Origin: Candidatus Lloydbacteria bacterium RIFCSPHIGHO2_02_FULL_50_18
Lineage (GTDB): Bacteria > Patescibacteriota > Minisyncoccia > Phycocordibacterales > UBA6899
Direction: 5' to 3'
Assembly: GCA_001821395.1 (NCBI GenBank)
Contig: MHLM01000003.1
Location: forward strand, 46,151-110,150
DNA length: 64,000 nucleotides
The notes under the pieces were generated by a model that worked only from the letters and a program-made list of their open reading frames with translations, was not told where the DNA came from and did not search any database. Made by a program: the position numbers and the translations under genes. Positions 1,590 through 63,908 of the stretch are shown piece after piece (the first letter of the stretch is position 1; each line of letters opens with the position of its first letter).

Positions 1590-2783
1590 TTACAGTCCTC
1601 GTTCAAGTACTGCAATACGCGCAATGTTGTTGCAGAGTTTCCATGTTGCCTGGTCTTTACCAAGCTTGGTTGGATTTCGCATCTCTTTCGCTTGCTCACC
1701 GACAGTTTTTGCCAGCTCATCGGCAAGCGAGCGAAAAACCTTTATTGGGTCGTCCTTCCAGATCGCCTTATCTCCCTCAACTTTCACGAGATTGCGGAAT
1801 GCCGCTAGTACGGGATAGATGAAAGCACTTGGTATTCTATAGTTCGCCTCACTTGAGTTGAAGATAAGTTCTTCATTAGCCATTTTGGGGCGGTTATTGA
1901 TCTGTATCACTCCAGTTAAGGCGCCAAATTTCCCACCGGCAGCTTTATTGTAAGCCTCAGGAAGTTCTCTGTAGATCGTGTCACGTAATTCGAGAATTCT
2001 TGGAATGAGCGGGACATACTTCATCAGGGTGGCTCGATAATTTTTGAAGTGTTCGATCACGTTTGATTTCTGCGAATATGCCATTATTGGATGATGTTCT
2101 TGGTCAAAATGATCGACATCGAAACATACGAGATAGGAAAGAATCTCCTTGATGTCCACATCCTTTGCTTCACCCGTTTTTTCGTCAATCTCATATTCTT
2201 TGTAGGCAATTCGATTTGCATATGGCTTGTCTTTGACTACCTGCTTGATCTCTTCAAAATGCTGATTCAGCTCCTCAAGGCTTTCGGACTTTACTTGAGC
2301 GGAGGTATTACGCGCGAGCACGATCTCAACTGCGTCATCTAGATTTTCAATCCCTTCAATAATTTCGATGCGAACACAGGCATTGATATCCTTTAACTCA
2401 TCTGGATTTGCACTATGGACGAAGTTTTGCAGAACACGGTATGTATGCCCGCCATCCAGTAGGCCGTGACGAGTTGAATCAACTAATTCAAGACTCACCT
2501 CGCCTGTCTTGTTGTCGTATTCGGCCTTGTCAACAAGCAAGGTAATACCGCGATTGCGGAAAAGAAATTGGTCAGGATTGTTTTCGAGTGATTTCTGAAT
2601 CTTCTTGCTGACCCCAGAAGTGATCTTGGGGTCACGCGGATTAATTTTTCGCCACTCCTCTACTTCAGCGGGTAAGTTAACGATGTTTGCTACTGCGATA
2701 TATGATCGGGCCACTGTTTCGTCATGTGGACTCTCGATTCTTCTGAAAGATGCAACTGGAAATTTAATAATTGTGCTTTTCAT
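1590..2783 (-). CDS. defense-island protein, possibly AIPR (abortive-infection phage-resistance) family; contains a DGGH(T) ParB/DGQHR-like motif
   Basis: About 397 aa ORF adjacent to and divergent from the R-M genes. Motif LLDGGHTYRVL. Family call is tentative; no search possible. Confidence 0.4.
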   Translation of the reverse strand: MKSTIIKFPVASFRRIESPHDETVARSYIAVANIVNLPAEVEEWRKINPRDPKITSGVSKKIQKSLENNPDQFLFRNRGITLLVDKAEYDNKTGEVSLELVDSTRHGLLDGGHTYRVLQNFVHSANPDELKDINACVRIEIIEGIENLDDAVEIVLARNTSAQVKSESLEELNQHFEEIKQVVKDKPYANRIAYKEYEIDEKTGEAKDVDIKEILSYLVCFDVDHFDQEHHPIMAYSQKSNVIEHFKNYRATLMKYVPLIPRILELRDTIYRELPEAYNKAAGGKFGALTGVIQINNRPKMANEELIFNSSEANYRIPSAFIYPVLAAFRNLVKVEGDKAIWKDDPIKVFRSLADELAKTVGEQAKEMRNPTKLGKDQATWKLCNNIARIAVLERGL

Positions 2784-3087
2784 ACTGTGTATGGCTAAGC
2801 GAATAAATGGGCAAAATAAAAACATGCCCGGTGCGCATGCTTAGCAGTCGTCTATGAAAAATATTCATTAGGCTGAGCTAAATGTTGGTCGAGATCTCTC
2901 TACGGCCCTCCACAGCTTTCACTACTGGAGTCAGTGTGCGTACATCACTGATTTCATTAGCCTACACCCGTAGCTGGGCTGACGTCAATGAATAACCAAA
3001 CATCCTCTAGAGAGCCAAGAATAAAGGGCAAAAAGCCCATAATTGTCCCCATTTTTCTTAATTTTTTCCTACTTAATTTGATCCGAT

Positions 3088-3098
3088 GTTGCTATAAT
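3088..3098 (+). promoter_or_regulatory. extended -10 promoter element (TGcTATAAT) for methyltransferase gene, short leader
   Basis: tgcTATAAT ends 17 nt upstream of the ATG at 3116. No SD. Confidence 0.4.
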
Positions 3099-3115
3099 TA
3101 GGATACGATTTTTGC

Positions 3116-5041
3116 ATGAGGCTTCTTGAACAACACAAAATTGCTCCCCGCATTTCTGCTTCTCAGGAGAGTGTTTTTGTCACTCGACCACTTCTTAAGT
3201 GGGCGGGAGGGAAAACACAACTGCTTGATGAGCTTCTTCCTAAACTTCCAGATGAGTATGGTCGGTTTATAGAACCGTTCATTGGTGGTGGAGCTTTATT
3301 TTTCAAAGTTAAGCCCAGAAACGGAATAATCGCAGACAGTAACCCGGAACTAGTAAACATGTATCGCTCAGTTGCGGAGAATGTTACTGCTGTCATTGAG
3401 CACCTCACGCGCTATAAGAATACGGAAGAGATGTTTTATAAAGTGCGGGCGCAAGACTGGGGTAATCTTTCTCCAGAGGAAGCAGCCGCACGTACCATCT
3501 ATCTGAATCGCACCTGCTTTAATGGGCTGTATCGAGTCAATAAAAAAGGACAATTCAACGTACCGTATGGTAGATATACGAATCCGCGAATAGTCGACGT
3601 AGAAGGATTAATATCTGCATCTCAGCTTTTGCAGAATACCAAAATAATCTGTGGTGACTACAAGAGCGTGTTGCGCGAAGAAGCACGTGCTGGTGATTTT
3701 ATCTTTCTTGATCCTCCCTATTTGCCCATATCAGAATATGCAGACTTCAAGAGATACACCAAGGAGCAATTTTATGAAGAGGACCACGTGGAACTAGCAG
3801 AAGAAGTACGACGCCTTCATGACTTGGGATGTCACGTTGTTTTAACAAACTCGAATCATCCGTTGGTGCATGAGCTGTATCAAGGATTTGAGATAGAGGT
3901 AATTCAATCAAGGCGCAACATCAGTTCAAATGCAAAGAGTAGAACAGGGGAGGACGTAATTGTCACAGCAATACCTAGGCACCGCTTCAATAAGAGACTC
4001 ATAATTACTCCACAACCTGAACAATTACTGAAGTACCCATCAACAAGATACATGGGATCGAAGAATAAATTGCTAGATCAAATCTGGGCAGTTGCTTCAC
4101 AGTTTAATTTTGATACTGCTGTGGACCTATTTTCGGGATCCGGCATAGTTGGCTATATGTTTAAGGCGCATGGCAAAGAAGTGCTATCAAATGACTATAT
4201 GACGATGTCTGCCGTTTTTGCAAAGGCCATGGTGGAGAATAATAATGTTCGTCTCACGGAGAAAGATATAAATGCACTACTCAAGTCACATCGTGCGGTC
4301 GATCGTTTTGTCCAAGAAACTTTCGGAGGATTGTATTTTACCGACGAAGAAAACAAGCTCATTGATATCGTCAGGTCTAATGTAAAAAAACTGAAAAACC
4401 CGCACAAGAGAGCAATAGCAATGTCTGCGTTGATACGAGCGTGTGTCAAAAAAAGGCCACGAGGTATTTTTACTTATGTTGGACACAGGTATGATGACGG
4501 ACGCCGTGATCTCTCCATCTCTTTTGAGCAACAGTTCGTTGAGGCAATACAGGCCATCAATGCTTCAATCTTCGACAACGGAAAGAAGAACAAGGCACGA
4601 CAGGGTGATGCCATGAGCATTAATACCGGACATCCTGGCTTGGTTTACATTGATCCTCCATACTTTAGTCCATTTTCTGACAATGAATATGTGCGCCGGT
4701 ATCATTTTGTTGAGGGGTTGGCCCGCGATTGGAAGGGTGTTGAAATTCAAGAGCACACACTAACAAAGAAGTTTAAAAACTACCCCACTCCCTTTTCATC
4801 AAGAAATGGTGCATATGATGCTTTTGATCTTCTATTCAAGCGTTTTCGCAATAGTATTTTAATCGTTTCGTATTCTTCAAACAGCCTCCCCACGCTTGAT
4901 GAGATGGTTGCACTTATGGCAAAACATAAGCGACATGTCGAAGTCATACCCGTTGATTATAAATATTCGATCGGCAACCAAGGGCATAAAGTTAACGATA
5001 ACCGGAATAACGTTAAAGAATACTTGTTTGTTGGATACTAA
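3116..5041 (+). CDS. Type IIS-style fused two-domain N6-adenine DNA methyltransferase (M.FokI-like; two Dam/D12-class domains)
   Basis: 641 aa. Domain 1: LLKWAGGKTQLLDEL, FIGGGALFF, LDPPY. Domain 2: YMGSKNKLL, FSGSGIVGY, IDPPYFSP. The architecture and the roughly 640-aa length are those of M.FokI. Confidence 0.85.
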   Translation: MRLLEQHKIAPRISASQESVFVTRPLLKWAGGKTQLLDELLPKLPDEYGRFIEPFIGGGALFFKVKPRNGIIADSNPELVNMYRSVAENVTAVIEHLTRYKNTEEMFYKVRAQDWGNLSPEEAAARTIYLNRTCFNGLYRVNKKGQFNVPYGRYTNPRIVDVEGLISASQLLQNTKIICGDYKSVLREEARAGDFIFLDPPYLPISEYADFKRYTKEQFYEEDHVELAEEVRRLHDLGCHVVLTNSNHPLVHELYQGFEIEVIQSRRNISSNAKSRTGEDVIVTAIPRHRFNKRLIITPQPEQLLKYPSTRYMGSKNKLLDQIWAVASQFNFDTAVDLFSGSGIVGYMFKAHGKEVLSNDYMTMSAVFAKAMVENNNVRLTEKDINALLKSHRAVDRFVQETFGGLYFTDEENKLIDIVRSNVKKLKNPHKRAIAMSALIRACVKKRPRGIFTYVGHRYDDGRRDLSISFEQQFVEAIQAINASIFDNGKKNKARQGDAMSINTGHPGLVYIDPPYFSPFSDNEYVRRYHFVEGLARDWKGVEIQEHTLTKKFKNYPTPFSSRNGAYDAFDLLFKRFRNSILIVSYSSNSLPTLDEMVALMAKHKRHVEVIPVDYKYSIGNQGHKVNDNRNNVKEYLFVGY

Positions 5042-5061
5042 AGATATAGGATTGTGAAATC

Positions 5062-6810
5062 ATGTCAGGAGTATGGAATATAGGAAATACCACAGTTCGC
5101 AACCCCAAAAGAATTGAAATGGGACTACGCCTACTCCACGAAGGTGGATTCTTGGGCAACCTTGAGGGAGAGGAAAATGAAATTAAACTTACCGACGCAC
5201 TGGTGCAGTCTGGGGTTGTTGATTCCGCCTCTAAAGAAAAGAGTTCTGCTTGGCTGGGTCGCAAGTGGAGAAATGTGATGGTGAAGCTGGGCTTTATTAC
5301 CGACAAGGCATATCGAATAGAAGGAAAAGCTGTATCTCACAGTAAAATATTCACAGAAATAGGTGCGGATATGAATGCTTACTCTCTTACTCCCGCAGGG
5401 GAGAGGTTGGTAATGGCAAAGACGCTTGGAGAAGTGCAAGATGTTTTCTTGCAACAACTGTATCGACACCAATTGCCAAATCCTCTTGAAAAGAAAGTTC
5501 CCAAAGACGCACCACCCATGCGACCCTTTGTGCTCCTGCTTGATGTCCTGCTTAGCTTGCAGAACGACGATGCTGGGATTTCCCAGACGGAAACAGCAAT
5601 ATTTATACAAGAAATACAAAGCCACACTCAGGACACGGGAGTAAAGATAGCCATGAAGATTATTGCTTACAGAAAAAAGAGAGGAATGTTGTCTTCAAGG
5701 AGGGAAAAACTAATCTTTGACAAGGAACTTTTGAGCGAAGTTTCAACAAGGGCGAAGGTCAAACTACTGACTCCTCGTGACTATGCCGATACCACAATTA
5801 GATATTTTTCCATGACAGGGCTTTTTGAAGTTCATGGATCCCGGATGTGTATCAAAGCTGAAAAAAGAAACGTTGCAGAGGAATTAGTAAAGAGCTCACA
5901 AGATCTTTTTGTAATTACTGACCCCGTTCAGTATCTCAAGGAGTTTTATGTTGGAACTGGGTTGCCAACCGATAACACGAGGGTGTTAAACGAGGAGCTT
6001 GCTGCGCTCAAAGAAATAGCACATGAATTAAAAATCAAAACCAAGGCTACGGGAGAAAAAGATCCCAACAGGTTAAAGGCGGAAAAATATAAACTTGAAG
6101 AAGATATTTTGTTTGCCAAAGAGGAGCAATTTGCACTTTTGCAACAGAATCCTGATCAGGTTGAAGACATAATCTCGTCCCTGTCTAAGATAGCTACAAG
6201 TGATCGCGACTTTTTGCGCAGCCTCGTGGATCTCCCCGCTTATCTAGAGTGGATTGTTTGGAGAGGATTTTTGTCTGTTGATCATATTACGGTCCCAACA
6301 AAAGAAACACGTGGCTTTCCTGTTGATTCCGATTTGCAGCCAAGATATCCTGCCCCAGGGGGTAGACCGGATATGTCCTTTGAGTTTTTGGACTACAGTC
6401 TTGTTGTCGAAGTGACATTAACCACCTCCACTCGACAATATATTGCCGAGTGTGAGCCAGTAAGAAGACATGTTGCCAACGGAAAAGGTGGAAAGGAGAC
6501 ACTCGGAATTTTTATTGCTCCCACCCTCGACAATAACTTTCTCCATAAAGTGCGAGAGCACTTCCGTGGTGACGAGCTAATAATGCTAAAGATTTTACCG
6601 CTCACGATTTCACATTTTGTTCGCTTGCTTGAGGTACACAAGTCCACATCCATTACGCCCGACGACGTTAAGGATCTAATCTTGAGGGTCAATAGTAGTG
6701 AATCCTCAAATGGTCTTGAGTGGAAGAAGCATATTGAGCAGACTTTTGATGAATGGTTACAAGAACATGGAGCAGTCGATGCTGTGAGAGGAAAGGTCGT
6801 GGCGGCGTAG
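5062..6810 (+). CDS. Type IIS restriction endonuclease, FokI-like (N-terminal recognition region, C-terminal PD-(D/E)xK cleavage domain)
   Basis: 582 aa (FokI is 587 aa). C-terminus GGRPDMSFEFLDYSLVVEVT aligns by eye to FokI RKPDGAIY...DYGVIVDTK. The downstream AECEPVRRHV segment matches ADEMQRYVEE. It sits immediately after the two-domain methyltransferase. Confidence 0.6.
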   Translation: MSGVWNIGNTTVRNPKRIEMGLRLLHEGGFLGNLEGEENEIKLTDALVQSGVVDSASKEKSSAWLGRKWRNVMVKLGFITDKAYRIEGKAVSHSKIFTEIGADMNAYSLTPAGERLVMAKTLGEVQDVFLQQLYRHQLPNPLEKKVPKDAPPMRPFVLLLDVLLSLQNDDAGISQTETAIFIQEIQSHTQDTGVKIAMKIIAYRKKRGMLSSRREKLIFDKELLSEVSTRAKVKLLTPRDYADTTIRYFSMTGLFEVHGSRMCIKAEKRNVAEELVKSSQDLFVITDPVQYLKEFYVGTGLPTDNTRVLNEELAALKEIAHELKIKTKATGEKDPNRLKAEKYKLEEDILFAKEEQFALLQQNPDQVEDIISSLSKIATSDRDFLRSLVDLPAYLEWIVWRGFLSVDHITVPTKETRGFPVDSDLQPRYPAPGGRPDMSFEFLDYSLVVEVTLTTSTRQYIAECEPVRRHVANGKGGKETLGIFIAPTLDNNFLHKVREHFRGDELIMLKILPLTISHFVRLLEVHKSTSITPDDVKDLILRVNSSESSNGLEWKKHIEQTFDEWLQEHGAVDAVRGKVVAA

Positions 6811-6818
6811 ATTAAAAA

Positions 6819-6846
6819 ACAGACCACCCATTAATGGGCGGTCTGC
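6819..6846 (+). terminator. terminator after R-M operon
   Basis: cagaccaccca-ttaa-tgggcggtctg hairpin with one mismatch. T-run slightly downstream. Confidence 0.5.
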
Positions 6847-6871
6847 TCTGCTCCGGTTTTTGTGGAAATAA

Positions 6872-7147
6872 CTACAATCCACGCTCAAGAACGGCAATGC
6901 GAGCACGCTTTCAGACAATGGGTTCGGCCTACGTGTTTTTGATGGCGCGGTAGAAATTCACGATTCGACGATCGCGGGTAACGAAACGGGCATAATGAAT
7001 ACAGATATTGATATGGTGGTTGACGCCACAAGGAATTATTGGGGAGACGCTGACGGGCCGACGCTTTCGGGTGAAGCAGCTGATGGTGACAGCATCTCGG
7101 AAAATGTTTTGACCGAAGGTTTCCTCGTCGCTCCGCCGATGATCTAA
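6872..7147 (+). pseudogene. 3' remnant of a parallel beta-helix (PbH1) repeat protein gene, no start codon
   Basis: Open frame reads ...NGNASTLSDNGFGLRVFDGAVEIHDSTIAGNETGIMNTDIDMVVDATRNYWGDADG...PPMI*. A stop codon lies just upstream and no upstream start is present. Confidence 0.45.
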
Positions 7148-7272
7148 GAAGGGTCGATTACCGATGTTTTGTCCAAGCGCAAGACCACTGGACGGCATCA
7201 CCTATACCGGTAGTCCTTGTCATGAAATTGCCCATGTAAGCATCAAAGAATCCTTCGGTGTGTTAACATGAA

Positions 7273-7521
7273 GTGATGAAATCAAAAGGATGGGGACTTG
7301 AGTTGATCGGGGCGTATGGAATGGTGATGATACTCGGAGCGTATTTTTTGACGTCTTTTAATTATGTTCTTGCCGATAATCTCTGGTATCAATTGATGAA
7401 TCTTACGGGTGGTATGGCTTTTGTGTACTACACGCTCACGAAAAAGGCGTGGGCGTCCCTCGGGGTCAACTCGGTGTGGGTCATCATCGCCGCCGTCAGT
7501 CTCTGGAAGATGTTCATGTAG
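7273..7521 (+). CDS. small hydrophobic membrane protein, unknown function
   Basis: 82 aa with 2-3 predicted TM helices. The antisense ORF looks like noise. Confidence 0.45.
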   Translation: MMKSKGWGLELIGAYGMVMILGAYFLTSFNYVLADNLWYQLMNLTGGMAFVYYTLTKKAWASLGVNSVWVIIAAVSLWKMFM

Positions 7522-7595
7522 CCAAGCGCTCGGCATTTAGGTTGCAATGAACCGGATACCCTACTTGAGGACTTGAGACGTAGCACAAAATTTTA

Positions 7596-7635
7596 AAAGT
7601 ACTATTTATTTGCTATAGCAAATAAATAGTACTTT
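7596..7635. repeat. perfect 40-bp palindrome (arms AAAGTACTATTTA... / ...TAAATAGTACTTT)
   Basis: aaagtactatttatttgcta|tagcaaataaatagtacttt read directly. Lies between convergent genes, 90 bp past the stop of the PaaX-like gene. Confidence 0.9.
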
Positions 7636-7724
7636 CACTTTTGGAGATGAGCACGGGAAGGGGGAGGACGTAATGCTCTTGGTTTGTGGTTGTCGGAGGA
7701 CTGCATCTGCTGTCGTGGGTAGAG

Positions 7725-8372
7725 TTATTGTAAATGAAAGTGGCGGATGAGTTCCGGTGCATTATCGATATCGGTTGCCGTCATAAAGCGGATGTGTCGC
7801 CGGGCATTGTAGAATTCCATTATGTATTCGATCTCGCTTGCGCAAGGGTAGGGGTGCACGAAGACTGATTTTTGAAACTCAGAGAATCCCATGTTCTTGA
7901 AATGCATGCGGAGCGCATCGCGAACGCCTTTCAGATTTTCCGGAACATCAAACATCACCACTCGCCATTTTTTGTCCCAATAAGGAGGCATTTTGATGAC
8001 CAAGTTATCAAGATCATAACGGAGTGCCACTTCCTTACCCTCCTTTGACAGGACAAGAGTGAATGTGCCGTCCTTATTGCTTTTTGTGCTTACGAGCTTG
8101 GACTTATAGAGATTTTGGATCGCCTGATTGAGCGCCCTACGGTTGATGGCGTTCCACTCTGCCTTCATTGCCCTCGCGACACGAAAGTACTGTTTCGGTG
8201 ATCGTGAGAGCCCGAGTGCCAATCCGCCGAGTAAGAGGAGCAGCACCTTTTGTTGCACATGTCCCACTCGTCTCTTTGAAACGTCGCTCGCTGTACCCAC
8301 CCCCTTCTTTATCTCTGTCTTTCGCATGGTGATTTGTTTGGATATTTTTGTCACACCATTCAATCTTTTCAT
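7725..8372 (-). CDS. PaaX-like transcriptional regulator (N-terminal winged HTH + central Cas2-like domain), short C-terminus
   Basis: 215 aa. Cas2/VapD-like pattern WRVVMFDVPENLKGVRDALRMHFKNMGFSEFQKSVF. Basic helical N-terminus. Confidence 0.5.
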   Translation of the reverse strand: MKRLNGVTKISKQITMRKTEIKKGVGTASDVSKRRVGHVQQKVLLLLLGGLALGLSRSPKQYFRVARAMKAEWNAINRRALNQAIQNLYKSKLVSTKSNKDGTFTLVLSKEGKEVALRYDLDNLVIKMPPYWDKKWRVVMFDVPENLKGVRDALRMHFKNMGFSEFQKSVFVHPYPCASEIEYIMEFYNARRHIRFMTATDIDNAPELIRHFHLQ

Positions 8373-8376
8373 AATA

Positions 8377-8424
8377 ACATAAAGTACTATTTACCCGCTA
8401 TCGCGGGTAAATAGTACTTTATGT
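8377..8424. repeat. 48-bp near-perfect palindrome sharing its 13-bp outer arms with the 7596-7635 palindrome; ends 5 nt upstream of the PaaX-like start codon
   Basis: acataaagtactatttacccgc-tatc-gcgggtaaatagtactttatgt. Confidence 0.9.
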
Positions 8425-8492
8425 GGGAGAGGAGAAAGGGAGAGAGAGGGGGTGGAATGGGGTTGGGTATACTCTATTAAGAAAAATTTGTC

Positions 8493-8583
8493 GCGATACG
8501 AAGTTCTGGACTGAAACGGTGCTTGAGATGCTGTACGAGTTGTACTGCCTCCAAACCCGCCAAAGGAAGAACTAGTAGTCCGC
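8493..8583. repeat. copy 1 of an imperfect direct repeat of about 90 bp (about 80% identity to 8723-8815)
   Basis: gcgatacgaagttctggac...ccaaacccgccaaaggaagaactag vs gcgatgtgaagtcctggac...ccaaacccgccgaaggaaggacgag. Confidence 0.8.
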
Positions 8584-8722
8584 AAAATTGAACACGCTAA
8601 AGAGTCTATTCAAATAGCCCCAGATGCGAGGCGCCTTGACAACGGTCCAACACCAGAAGAACGTTCAGATTTTTGATGAGATCTGATGTTGATTTTGTGC
8701 TAAGAGAGTTTCAGTTTCGGAT

Positions 8723-8815
8723 GCGATGTGAAGTCCTGGACAGAGGCGGTGTTTGAGAAGTTGTACGAGCTGTACTACTTCCAAACCCGCCGAAGGAAGG
8801 ACGAGCAGTGCGCCG
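8723..8815. repeat. copy 2 of the imperfect direct repeat of about 90 bp
   Basis: See copy 1. A compensatory change in the terminal pairing segment (agttct/agaact vs agtcct/aggac) is consistent with RNA structure. Confidence 0.8.
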
Positions 8816-8830
8816 AAAATGGAACTCTCG

Positions 8831-10123
8831 CTAGGACCACTTCACTTTGAGGAAGTGAGACGCGCAACTCATACAAGGGTCATACGCCCTTACCAGTTTC
8901 TCCATTTCGAGTGGCATCTTTTCTTTTTCCATTCCTCGCGCGATCAGTCCTTCGACGTAACGCCCCATGTCTTGCTCGATGTTGATCTGGTTCTGCCCGG
9001 TGGGAACGATAACTTCACCGTCTTTGATGAGTCCATCGGCACCCAAGACGAGTTTATGATAAAGCGTTCCGCGGGGAGCCTCAACAATGCCGACACCGAC
9101 GGCATCGCGTGCGGGTTTTTTGATCAAAGGCTCCGGAGTGAATTTGCGCGTGCGGAGTATCTCGACCGCCTCATCGAGGGAGTGCAATATTTCGATCGCT
9201 TGCGCGAGGTTGTTGTGGAAGATGTCGGTCGACGGGAAGAGTGCGAGCGCCTCAGGTATTGATGCTTTGGTGTTTGGGTGGAGTTTGTCTTTTGCAATAT
9301 TGATGCGGGCGAGTGAGCCCACCATGTAGCCGTCGCCTTTATACTGGTATGCAGATGCCTGTGAGTAGGGGAGAACGACATGTTCCAAAAGATTGCGGTA
9401 CTCACTCTTGGGGAATATTTCGCCTCGGCTCGTGCGGATGGTGCCCGTGATGTAGCCAAAGTTGCCTTCGGGAATGAGCGCCTGATAATTGGTCTTGCGA
9501 TCGAAATGGAACGGCTGGTCCTGGAATATCTTGATCAAGCGTAACGCTGCAGGGCGCATCGCTTCCATTTTTTCAATTGCTTCGTCGATGCCCGCCTGGT
9601 CGGGGAAGTGAAGGAACCCGCCGATCGTCGGATAGTGCGCATGGACGGAGCGTCCCGCAATAAGTGTTGCGAGGAAATTTCCCGCGGCCTTGATCCCAAA
9701 GCCGTCATGGAGGATCTGGTGTTCCTCGGGAATATTCTCATCGAGGTCGAGGAAGGCATCCTTGCCGTAGACATCGGGGAGCGAGAAGAGATAGAGGTGA
9801 AGTGCGTGGTCGCGAATGGTGAGTCCGTGCATCGTGAGTGCGCGAAGGACATCGGTCTGCTCCGAGGGTTCGATGTCGAGCGCGTCTTCACATGCGAGGA
9901 TGGCAGCCATGACGTGTGCATTTGAGCAGGTACCGCAGATGCGTGCCAAATGTTGCGGTATTGCAAGAATGGCTTTGCCCTTCATCGCTTCCGTGAAGAA
10001 GCGCTTGTATTCAATGGTCTGGAATTTCACATCGGTCACTTTGCCGTCTTCGACTTTGACCGAGATCGAGGCGTCGCCTTCGATCTTCGTAATGTGTTCC
10101 ATGCTGAGATCAAATGTATGCAT
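8831..10123 (-). CDS. [NiFe]-hydrogenase large (alpha) subunit, group 3-like
   Basis: 430 aa. N-terminal RICGTCSNAH (RxCGxCxxxH) and C-terminal DPCMSCASH (DPCxxCxxH) Ni-Fe ligand motifs. Confidence 0.9.
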   Translation of the reverse strand: MHTFDLSMEHITKIEGDASISVKVEDGKVTDVKFQTIEYKRFFTEAMKGKAILAIPQHLARICGTCSNAHVMAAILACEDALDIEPSEQTDVLRALTMHGLTIRDHALHLYLFSLPDVYGKDAFLDLDENIPEEHQILHDGFGIKAAGNFLATLIAGRSVHAHYPTIGGFLHFPDQAGIDEAIEKMEAMRPAALRLIKIFQDQPFHFDRKTNYQALIPEGNFGYITGTIRTSRGEIFPKSEYRNLLEHVVLPYSQASAYQYKGDGYMVGSLARINIAKDKLHPNTKASIPEALALFPSTDIFHNNLAQAIEILHSLDEAVEILRTRKFTPEPLIKKPARDAVGVGIVEAPRGTLYHKLVLGADGLIKDGEVIVPTGQNQINIEQDMGRYVEGLIARGMEKEKMPLEMEKLVRAYDPCMSCASHFLKVKWS

Positions 10124-52441: not shown

Positions 52442-52498
52442 ATGGTCTAAGGTCACTCCTTGGCTTTGAAAGGTGTGACCTTGATGAAGTTGACCATC
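52440..52498 (+). other. conserved structured hairpin element, copy 1 (overlaps nusG stop codon)
   Basis: agatggtc-taa-ggtcac-t-cctt-ggctttga-aagg-t-gtgacc-ttgatgaagtt-gaccatct. A second copy at 63814-63872 has compensatory stem changes. Confidence 0.6.
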
Positions 52499-63783: not shown

Positions 63784-63908
63784 TTGGCCAGAGCAGAAAG
63801 TGCCCCAATTGAAGACGGACTAAGGTCTCTCCTTGGCTTTGAAAGGTGAGACCTTGAAGAAGTTCGTCCGTCTTTTATCAACGAGACTTTTTCTGCTCTG
63901 GCGCAACC
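63784..63908 (+). other. conserved structured hairpin element, copy 2, enclosed in an additional 17-bp outer stem
   Basis: Core gacggac-taa-ggtctc-t-cctt-ggctttga-aagg-t-gagacc-ttgaagaagtt-cgtccgtc-TTTT. Outer stem ttggccagagcagaaag / ctttttctgctctggcgcaa. Confidence 0.6.

Follow-up and report, generated by a model that had tools for sequence, protein, structure and literature searches.

In a 64 kb stretch of the contig MHLM01000003.1 of a Candidatus Lloydbacteria bacterium (hereafter the window), a gene for a small PaaX-like protein lies between two long palindromes with identical 13-nt arms. What are these palindromes, and what does the enclosed protein have to do with them? The original prediction, made from this stretch of DNA, took them for an operator pair of a PaaX-like regulator. 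This main interpretation turned out to be essentially right; it is supported here and generalised from one locus to a whole protein family. From the sequence comparisons reported below, we consider it probable that both palindromes are duplex-DNA sites of the protein that they flank, used for its autoregulation, and that the downstream one also serves as a 3' hairpin. The family was found only in Patescibacteria (Candidate Phyla Radiation), which are almost entirely uncultivated and of whose gene regulation little is known.

The palindromes and the protein encoded between them

The locus consists of three elements:

7596-7635: downstream site (DN), a perfect 40-bp palindrome, AAAGTACTATTTATTTGCTATAGCAAATAAATAGTACTTT, 89 nt 3' of the stop codon
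8377-8424: upstream site (UP), a palindrome of 22+4+22 nt, ACATAAAGTACTATTTACCCGC-TATC-GCGGGTAAATAGTACTTTATGT
7725-8327, minus strand: probable coding sequence of the PaaX-like protein (200 amino acids, aa, and the stop codon), with M16 of the 215-aa open reading frame (ORF) 7725-8372 as its first residue

DN is perfectly palindromic over 40 bp, as had been predicted, and extends to 7594-7637 if one mismatch is allowed. UP had been described as a perfect palindrome of 48 bp; both of its 22-nt arms are indeed 100% complementary, but its 4-nt centre TATC is non-palindromic and breaks the perfection. The 13-nt arm that the two were said to share, AAAGTACTATTTA, is present in exactly four copies in the window, all of them inside UP and DN, and a search beyond the two palindromes found no further exact copy in the 64 kb. 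With up to two mismatches, six matches are found in the window against 0.68 expected, and none of 100 shuffles reaches six. UP and DN differ solely in the inner 3 bp of each arm, which read CCC/GGG in UP and TTT/AAA in DN; this change is compensatory, so that the symmetry is kept. No other stem of at least 20 bp was found in a window-wide scan, nor does the window contain any other site with symmetric arms and the centre typical of the family described below. Within the window, then, the arm does not behave as a genome-wide dispersed repeat unrelated to the gene, of the repetitive extragenic palindromic (REP) or miniature inverted-repeat transposable element (MITE) kind.

The N-termini of homologues align at about residue 16-35 of the long ORF 7725-8372, so that ATG 8327 (M16), rather than 8372, is probably the true start. 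With this start the near edge of UP lies ~49 nt, and its centre ~73 nt, 5' of the gene, not 5 nt from the start codon as was first proposed; on the other side, the 90 nt given for the gap between stop codon and DN is 89 nt by our measurement.

The PaaX-like architecture attributed to the protein is confirmed by Pfam and by the predicted fold. Over residues 131-203 the Pfam domain PaaX_M (PF20803) scores 71 bits, above its cut-off of 24 (E = 7.3e-20). In the AlphaFold model (predicted local distance difference test, pLDDT, 81) the N-half is a winged helix in the order helix-helix-beta-hairpin, the hairpin forming the wing, and the C-half folds like ferredoxin. The best PDB fold match of the whole chain is Escherichia coli PaaX (8a39; E = 5e-4, template modelling (TM) score just 0.36), followed by many Cas2 and VapD chains that match the C-half; by sequence, a profile run against the PDB turned up no relative. 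The N-half carries the putative recognition helix N77-S91 (NRRALNQAIQNLYKS in the window; numbering of the long ORF), and the C-half is a Cas2 fold (PaaX_M) with VVMFDVPE and QKSVF motifs.

PaaX is the phenylacetyl-CoA-responsive repressor of paa operons. The Cas2 dimer is part of the Cas1-Cas2 integrase, and Cas2 and VapD are small nucleases with a ferredoxin fold. With PaaX (PDB 8a39, 3l09; the paa repressor of E. coli and Pseudomonas) our protein shares the order of its parts, a modelled winged helix at the N-terminus and a Cas2 fold behind it. In PaaX the latter is the central domain, used for dimerisation, and here it presumably mediates dimerisation as well. However, PaaX is ~305-316 aa long against 200 aa here, and the C-terminal effector- or ligand-binding domain (PF08223) is absent, the chain ending ~60 residues past the Cas2-like core. 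The N-terminal winged-helix domain of PaaX (PF07848) finds no match at E <= 1, and TIGR02277 scores 27.3 against a cut-off of 264.6, with a match confined to model positions 83-151 of 279. With Cas2 and VapD the protein shares the fold of its C-half, including the Asp of the beta1 motif FD(V/I)P and the QKSVF strand motif, but its Cas2 scores stay below cut-off (PF09827, 17.1 against 23.8; TIGR01573, 19.6 against 24.5) and the domain shares its chain with a winged helix. An association with CRISPR was ruled out, as the 64 kb contain no CRISPR array and no cas1 is found among the neighbouring genes in the window or in the homologous loci L001-L005. As the C-terminal domain is absent and no paa genes occur near the gene, the protein is not a true PaaX; nor is it a Cas2. 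It represents a short, Patescibacteria-specific branch that combines a winged helix and a Cas2 fold. Some members (P0050, P0077 and relatives) bear the NCBI names "CRISPR-associated endonuclease Cas2" or "PaaX family regulator", neither of which fits proteins that have no cas/CRISPR context and no PaaX C-domain; the present analysis corrects these database names.

Layout and probable recognition of the sites across the family

The homologues found, about 800 proteins of ~185-200 aa, all belong to Patescibacteria (Lloydbacteria, Yonathbacteria, Minisyncoccia and others); an assembled genome of roughly 1 Mb contains several of them. The family is large: grouped at 50% identity, the matches of an exhaustive profile search with E <= 1e-30 form 309 clusters. 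Neither viral contigs nor PHROGs yielded a relative, and PADLOC gave weak Cas2 matches only. Literature searches for PaaX together with Patescibacteria, or with Cas2-like proteins, returned no papers.

The layout was sampled at 80 homologue loci from species-representative genomes, 73 non-redundant loci being counted with a symmetry score that tolerates a few mismatches. Long palindromes are concentrated 5' of the start (43) and 3' of the stop (41), against about one per 100-bp bin elsewhere in 422 kb. A palindrome of the family type stands on both sides of the gene in 57 of the 73 loci, on the upstream side only in seven, on the downstream side only in eight and on neither side in one, and about half of the sites are perfectly symmetric over positions 3-17. 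The arms are common to both sites within a locus and different between loci; they also differ among six paralogs of one assembled genome. Paralogs in the family are old (about 60% identical). Genes adjoining the homologues include yebC/ruvC, map, RNase J and others. In an 83%-identical ortholog (L001/L006), whose surroundings are broadly syntenic, both palindromes have kept their arms, and the differences are indels just outside each palindrome. The distance between the centres of UP and DN is 603-787 bp; its helical phasing is weak at 10.5 bp (Rayleigh p ~0.02) and nil at 10 or 11, and we do not rely on it. Where the centres are asymmetric enough to be informative, those of UP and DN are opposite in 6 of 9 loci. 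Across the loci compared, the palindrome-gene-palindrome layout is a family trait.

Some individual loci deserve mention. In contigs of UBA metagenome-assembled genomes (MAGs), runs of N fall exactly at palindrome centres (L011 ~1625, L012 ~1690, L024 ~3510). They probably reflect assembly or scaffolding trouble at fold-backs, and such sites may be under-represented or broken in MAGs. Locus L012 also exhibits, at position ~40, which is 600 bp 5' of its own site, a palindrome of the type that flanks the L024 paralog of the same MAG, and at L079 (1716-1800) two different site types stand in tandem upstream. These two cases hint at cross-regulation between paralogs.

A logo of 71 sites aligned on their centres gives the half-site tAgCAATaacayGC(K)A, read up to the centre. 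The central block GC(K)A/T(M)GC (the stroke marking the centre) is near invariant, and all 142 half-sites have C at -3. One helical turn away, at -13 to -10, the sequence is again conserved, and the outer recognition blocks are 28 bp apart. Symmetry is at least 92% across -17 to -1, low-information positions included.

For the analysis of covariation, 78 non-redundant proteins were aligned, each was paired with its flanking half-site, and corrected mutual information was computed. The top pairs link one helix, N77-S91, with DNA positions -12 to -16. Arg at residue 83 goes with C at -13 (G on the opposite strand) in 57 of 60 cases, Gln with T (A opposite) in 5 of 5, this window included, Asn with A in 3 of 3, and Asp with G (C opposite) in 2 of 3. 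At residue 79, Gln goes with G at -14 in 23 of 23 cases, Asn with G in 8 of 9, and Arg with C or A in 18 of 21. Together these pairings resemble a textbook recognition code. Residues 79, 83 and 86/87 share one helical face. The rule linking residue 83 and -13 is found separately at UP and at DN half-sites (Fisher p ~1e-18 and ~1e-20, values that ignore shared ancestry) and also among the paralogs of one genome. DN half-sites follow it as strictly as UP half-sites, including some in loci without a detectable UP, and where UP and DN have diverged from each other the conserved blocks are retained. Given that the signal is confined to one helix and one DNA block, and that -13 remains matched while the bases next to it vary, descent alone is hard to invoke. 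As the code is present at UP and DN separately, we infer that both are cognate double-stranded DNA sites, and the palindromes would be binding sites of the encoded protein. The earlier argument that the shared arms mark a protein-recognition site, and not two unrelated terminators, is supported by the two-sided layout in 57 of 73 loci, by the covariation of helix and arm, and by the promoter overlap described next.

In most loci UP ends a median of 25 nt before the ATG, and a TATACT/TATAAT box stands 6-8 nt before the ATG, with TTGnnn in the 3' arm of UP 17 nt upstream of this -10 box. Relative to the site centre, -10 hexamers are concentrated at +33 to +37, and only towards the gene; in a Nomurabacteria-type subfamily the site directly abuts TATAAT. 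A -10 box so close to the ATG implies a leaderless mRNA, and the bases read by the helix coincide with the -35 box, a classic arrangement for autorepression. As far as sequence can tell, this position of UP over its own promoter implies autorepression in most loci. The sites at UP exhibit 15 G·T against 20 A·C mismatches, that is, no G·U bias. The suggestion that the upstream palindrome forms a hairpin in the 5' untranslated region is thus probably wrong, and we rejected it: in most loci the site lies upstream of or over the -35 box, the mRNA is apparently leaderless, and the bias expected of an RNA stem is not seen.

The window departs from this geometry. Two promoters can be proposed there:

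8335-8363, minus strand: putative promoter of the gene, -35 TTGAAT (8363-8358), 17-nt spacer, -10 CAAACA (8340-8335), 7 nt to ATG 8327
8348-8375, plus strand: sigma-70-like promoter TTGTCA-16-CATAAT, 10/12 matches, directed off the gene, into UP and the purine tract beyond it

The minus-strand promoter was read by analogy with TTGAAT-16-TAAACA of L001 and with the family's -10 box 6-8 nt before the ATG; it is putative and weak, and would give a leaderless or near-leaderless mRNA. The plus-strand promoter is the better match of the two. It falls within the initial 15 codons of the long ORF, and this speaks against translation of these codons, which the homologues lack. A divergent transcript from this promoter may be controlled by the UP site. 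In the window, L001 and L003 the UP site is set further upstream than in most loci, and as it lies upstream of the putative -35 box in this lineage, simple occlusion does not apply.

PaaX itself is an autorepressor and binds a widely spaced palindrome, TGATTC-N27-GAATCA (PMC9493321). The family sites resemble it in this spacing, their outer blocks being 28 bp apart. In contrast, the family operator has an invariant centre, a second identical operator past the stop codon is a family-wide rule, and the family, found only in Patescibacteria, comprises several paralogs per genome with distinct specificities. For these bacteria the regularities described above would have practical value. For each member the flanks of the gene show the predicted binding site directly, an amino-acid-to-base rule (residue 83 with -13, residue 79 with -14) is readable from sequence, and the promoter architecture is simple, with the -35 box inside the site and a leaderless start. 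It should thereby be possible to predict regulatory targets from metagenomes and to test them in vitro or in E. coli, with no need to culture the organism.

The downstream site lies 0-100 nt after the stop codon in nearly all loci and is as symmetric as UP. Its imperfect sites exhibit, on the sense strand, 34 G·T against 17 A·C mismatches (p = 0.024); this excess suggests that DN is also transcribed and constrained as an RNA hairpin. DN would accordingly combine the roles of a second cognate operator and of a 3'-end mRNA hairpin, and looping or a roadblock via DN is plausible. That DN might serve the following gene, as its operator or promoter, was rejected as a general rule: a suitably spaced -10 box occurs in 8 of 59 loci only, and the next gene in the window is convergent.

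In the mechanism that we propose, a dimer of the protein would bind each palindrome, the half-site being composed of the outer block and the near-invariant central block. Helix N77-S91 would read the outer block at -12 to -16, with Gln83 matched to T:A at -13 in the window. Occupancy of UP would control the gene's own promoter, most likely as negative autoregulation; in the lineage of the window, control would need cooperation with DN, for instance through a ~785-bp DNA loop, or would act on the divergent promoter. DN would be transcribed and act as the 3'-end hairpin of the mRNA. Recombination between direct-repeat sites would occasionally delete the gene and leave one solo site. The sequence comparisons show the architecture and its conservation through the family, the covariation of protein and DNA, the overlap of site and promoter, and the polymorphism of site-gene-site against single site; what we infer is binding itself, dimer formation, the direction of regulation, the loop and the action of DN as a terminator. 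Cooperating operators are familiar from lambda cI, which lies between OL and OR with long-range looping, and from the lac, gal and deo loops. As in those systems, a regulator would face two separated operators, one at the promoter and one distal, which would allow cooperative autoregulation by a loop; here, in contrast, single near-identical palindromes of 34-48 bp stand at both ends of a monocistronic gene throughout the family, and the loop is proposed by us.

Hairpins, solo sites and the question of mobility

The features of DN can also be read in another way, with UP as the sole operator and DN as a terminator or 3'-stabilising hairpin, kept identical to UP by gene conversion or hairpin-templated correction. 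Such a role would suit the position of DN shortly after the stop codon in nearly all loci and the sense-strand G·U bias seen at DN alone. In the window DN is followed on the minus strand by TTTTAAAATTTT, and a consensus terminator scan flagged both palindromes as terminator-like on that strand, with this U-rich tail only at DN (the stretch 3' of DN being given as UUUUAAAAUUUU); some solo sites, to which we return below, are moreover extended with A-run/T-run ends like bidirectional terminators. Yet most DN sites have no T-tract, and in several loci (L008, L016, L017, L023) an ordinary, canonical terminator lies 60-120 nt beyond DN. The ordinary terminators of the window look quite different from DN: its remaining hairpins have stems of 12-15 bp flanked by A-runs and T-runs, whereas the stems of UP and DN are A/T-rich and far longer. 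DN obeys the residue-83 code as strictly as UP does, even in some loci without a detectable UP, and keeps the conserved blocks where the two have diverged. We regard a purely terminating DN as unlikely.

A more radical reading denies the protein any part: both palindromes would be RNA or DNA hairpins, in effect insulating bidirectional terminators, and their arms the product of local duplication. The predicted single-strand folds are very stable (-25.4 and -35.3 kcal/mol for the two palindromes; z = -9.5 and -11.6), and both were scored terminator-like, as said. An Rfam search of 7200-9000 gave sub-threshold hairpin-like noise only. This reading is highly improbable in view of the protein-DNA covariation, of the link to a single gene family, which is conserved in hundreds of genomes, and of the location of UP, which lies upstream of the -10 box in most loci, hence not in the mRNA, and has no G·U bias.

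Sites of the same kind also occur without the gene. We scanned metagenome contigs for the exact pattern of one common site type and assessed the presence of the gene by hmmsearch. The scan returned 115 sites, 109 of them fully symmetric. The family gene is present in 17 of 100 loci, and the rest represent ~45 distinct intergenic contexts; one palindrome type accounts for about 30 solo contexts across metagenomes. The genes flanking solo sites are co-directional in 30 cases, convergent in 14 and divergent in 8, and ordinary terminators often adjoin. Around the homologues, extra family sites number ~2 in 422 kb, about 1 per 150 kb.

Occupied and empty states can be compared directly at the yebC/ruvC junction, which is found as yebC-P-gene-P-ruvC and as yebC-P-ruvC (P being the palindromic site), with an identical 34-bp site and homologous flanks. 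The exact difference is one site plus promoter plus gene, ~660 bp. Both states occur at no fewer than six independent contexts, e.g. yebC/ruvC, pyrH-like/map and priA/murA. The gene occupies syntenic positions across genera, again for example at yebC/ruvC, and gene pairs at least 90% identical share both flanks in 18 of 18 cases. An active transposon, insertion sequence or MITE was rejected on the latter ground. The simplest account is vertical inheritance with occasional deletion of the gene through recombination between the two identical sites, which leaves a solo site behind much as recombination leaves a solo long terminal repeat. Orthologous solo sites at yebC/ruvC have unrelated outer arms, each perfectly symmetric.

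The solo sites also permit the opposite interpretation, that gene and palindromes form a mobile or semi-mobile module: an excisable, integrative cassette or an analogue of the REPIN-RAYT system, whose Cas2-fold domain would be an active nuclease or recombination factor acting on the palindromes as hairpins or cruciforms. Solo sites would then be dispersed non-autonomous copies or empty attachment sites. Several observations fit. Cognate palindromes flank the gene, usually as true inverted repeats to judge from the opposite centres at informative loci; paralogs differ in their palindromes; the occupied and empty states and the many solo intergenic contexts, some between convergent genes, are what such a module would produce; hairpin symmetry is near perfect despite sequence drift; the Cas2-type Asp is invariant; and, relative to its ortholog locus, the window has indels directly adjoining the outer side of both palindromes.

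REPIN-RAYT offers a parallel (PMC3116915, PMC3337134). There, too, a single-copy gene stands between cognate palindromes, the palindromes are specific to each paralog, extra copies are intergenic and inheritance is largely vertical. The likeness ends with the protein, which is not an HUH/Y1 transposase; neither by sequence nor by fold does it match that or another known transposase or recombinase, PaaX_M and Cas2-like domains being the only matches. It may end also with the numbers, as the window has two copies in 64 kb and further sites around homologues are rare. The family palindromes overlap a promoter and covary with a DNA-reading helix, which favours regulation through duplex DNA. The 18 of 18 highly similar copies that share both flanks indicate no recent transposition, the paralogs are old, the gene keeps syntenic positions across genera, viral contigs and PHROGs contain no relatives, and deletion between direct repeats at syntenic sites explains the solo sites more simply. 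A mobile module is therefore quite unlikely. Improbable as well is its catalytic form, in which the Cas2 fold would act on its own palindromes, as hairpins or extruded cruciforms, in a non-HUH counterpart of REPIN-RAYT or a system of integron-like cassettes. In this form the gene would excise together with one palindrome and re-enter at solo palindromes, and the solo sites would be its footprints across Patescibacteria.

We therefore return to two operators of an autoregulator, noting what weighs against them. In the window UP lies ~14 bp upstream of the putative -35 box and does not overlap it, and this promoter is itself weak (CAAACA). The covariation p-values ignore shared ancestry, the Gln, Asn and Asp classes are small, and the covariation analysis linked no protein position to the invariant centre. 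Symmetry is kept at the low-information positions -5 to -8 and in the fast-evolving outer arms, neither of which recognition by a dimer alone needs; symmetry at such apparently unread positions suggests that a hairpin serves as template for correction, or that a hairpin or cruciform is selected for. A large number of solo sites are found where two genes converge, with no obvious operator job there. At DN no consistent T-tract or downstream promoter is found across the family. Finally, the Asp of FDVP is invariant in the family, as are other polar residues, and this conservation would allow a catalytic role. The operator-at-both-ends design and the resulting polymorphism of site-gene-site against single site are unusual, and would make the family a natural system for loop-mediated autoregulation, for the upkeep of palindrome symmetry and for gene loss by recombination between operators.

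Two further kinds of sequence were observed among the metagenome contigs. Some solo palindromes extend over 50-80 bp of perfect symmetry, with A-run/T-run ends like those of bidirectional terminators (L125 8891, L148 1451, L163 836, L178 4754). In some groundwater metagenome contigs a ~120-nt module, consisting of a GTAT-type palindrome, 14 nt, TTGAAT-17-TAGAGT and the hairpin CACCGCCGGAGGCGGTG, precedes different genes, several times per contig (L095, L109 at 36 and 4316, L119, L155, L160 at 143 and 2456, L171 at 1434 and 3717, and others). By its composition it looks like a portable regulated promoter.

Surroundings of the gene in the window

Three smaller features accompany the locus:

8425-8470, plus strand: purine-only tract (polypyrimidine on the sense strand of the gene), beyond UP as seen from the gene
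7643-7670, plus strand: a further purine-rich tract (GGAGATGAGCACGGGAAGGGGGAGGACG), within the 89-nt gap from stop codon to DN
8184-8196, plus strand: half-site-like AAAGTACTGTTTC, 2 mismatches, within the coding sequence, over the codons of the conserved PKQYF motif

The purine-only tract next to UP, pointed out in the original prediction, is real, and matches the polypyrimidine/polypurine flanks found by the palindromes of many homologue loci, where C/T-rich tracts recur 5' of UP and G/A-rich tracts 3' of DN. In the window the unit of pyrimidine tract and palindrome directly repeats the upstream unit; most other loci exhibit a mirror arrangement. The half-site-like sequence is probably coincidental.

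The gene is surrounded by genes for a NiFe hydrogenase, a pyruvate:ferredoxin oxidoreductase and a small membrane protein and by a restriction-modification island. The spacer between UP and the hydrogenase gene contains a 91-nt direct repeat (8493-8583 and 8723-8813, 81% identity), which is not present in the ortholog locus L001 and has no Rfam match. Two small plus-strand ORFs (8423-8575 and 8728-8850) have the common peptide pattern W-TE-V-E-LYELY-QTR-RK; the two ORFs at the equivalent place in L001 are unrelated to them.

The island, of defence type, extends over 1590-7147. It encodes an abortive-infection-like AIPR protein, at 3116-5041 a fused double D12 N6-adenine methyltransferase, and at 5062-6810 a restriction endonuclease of the AlwI family. 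In place of the island, the ortholog locus carries a gene for a 1206-aa LTD/beta-helix protein, and 6905-7147 looks like a remnant of this gene. Farther along the window, a 34-nt hairpin, AAGGTC(A/T)CTCCTTGGCTTTGAAAGGTG(T/A)GACCTT, occurs twice, at 52449-52482 and 63822-63855, 11 kb apart.

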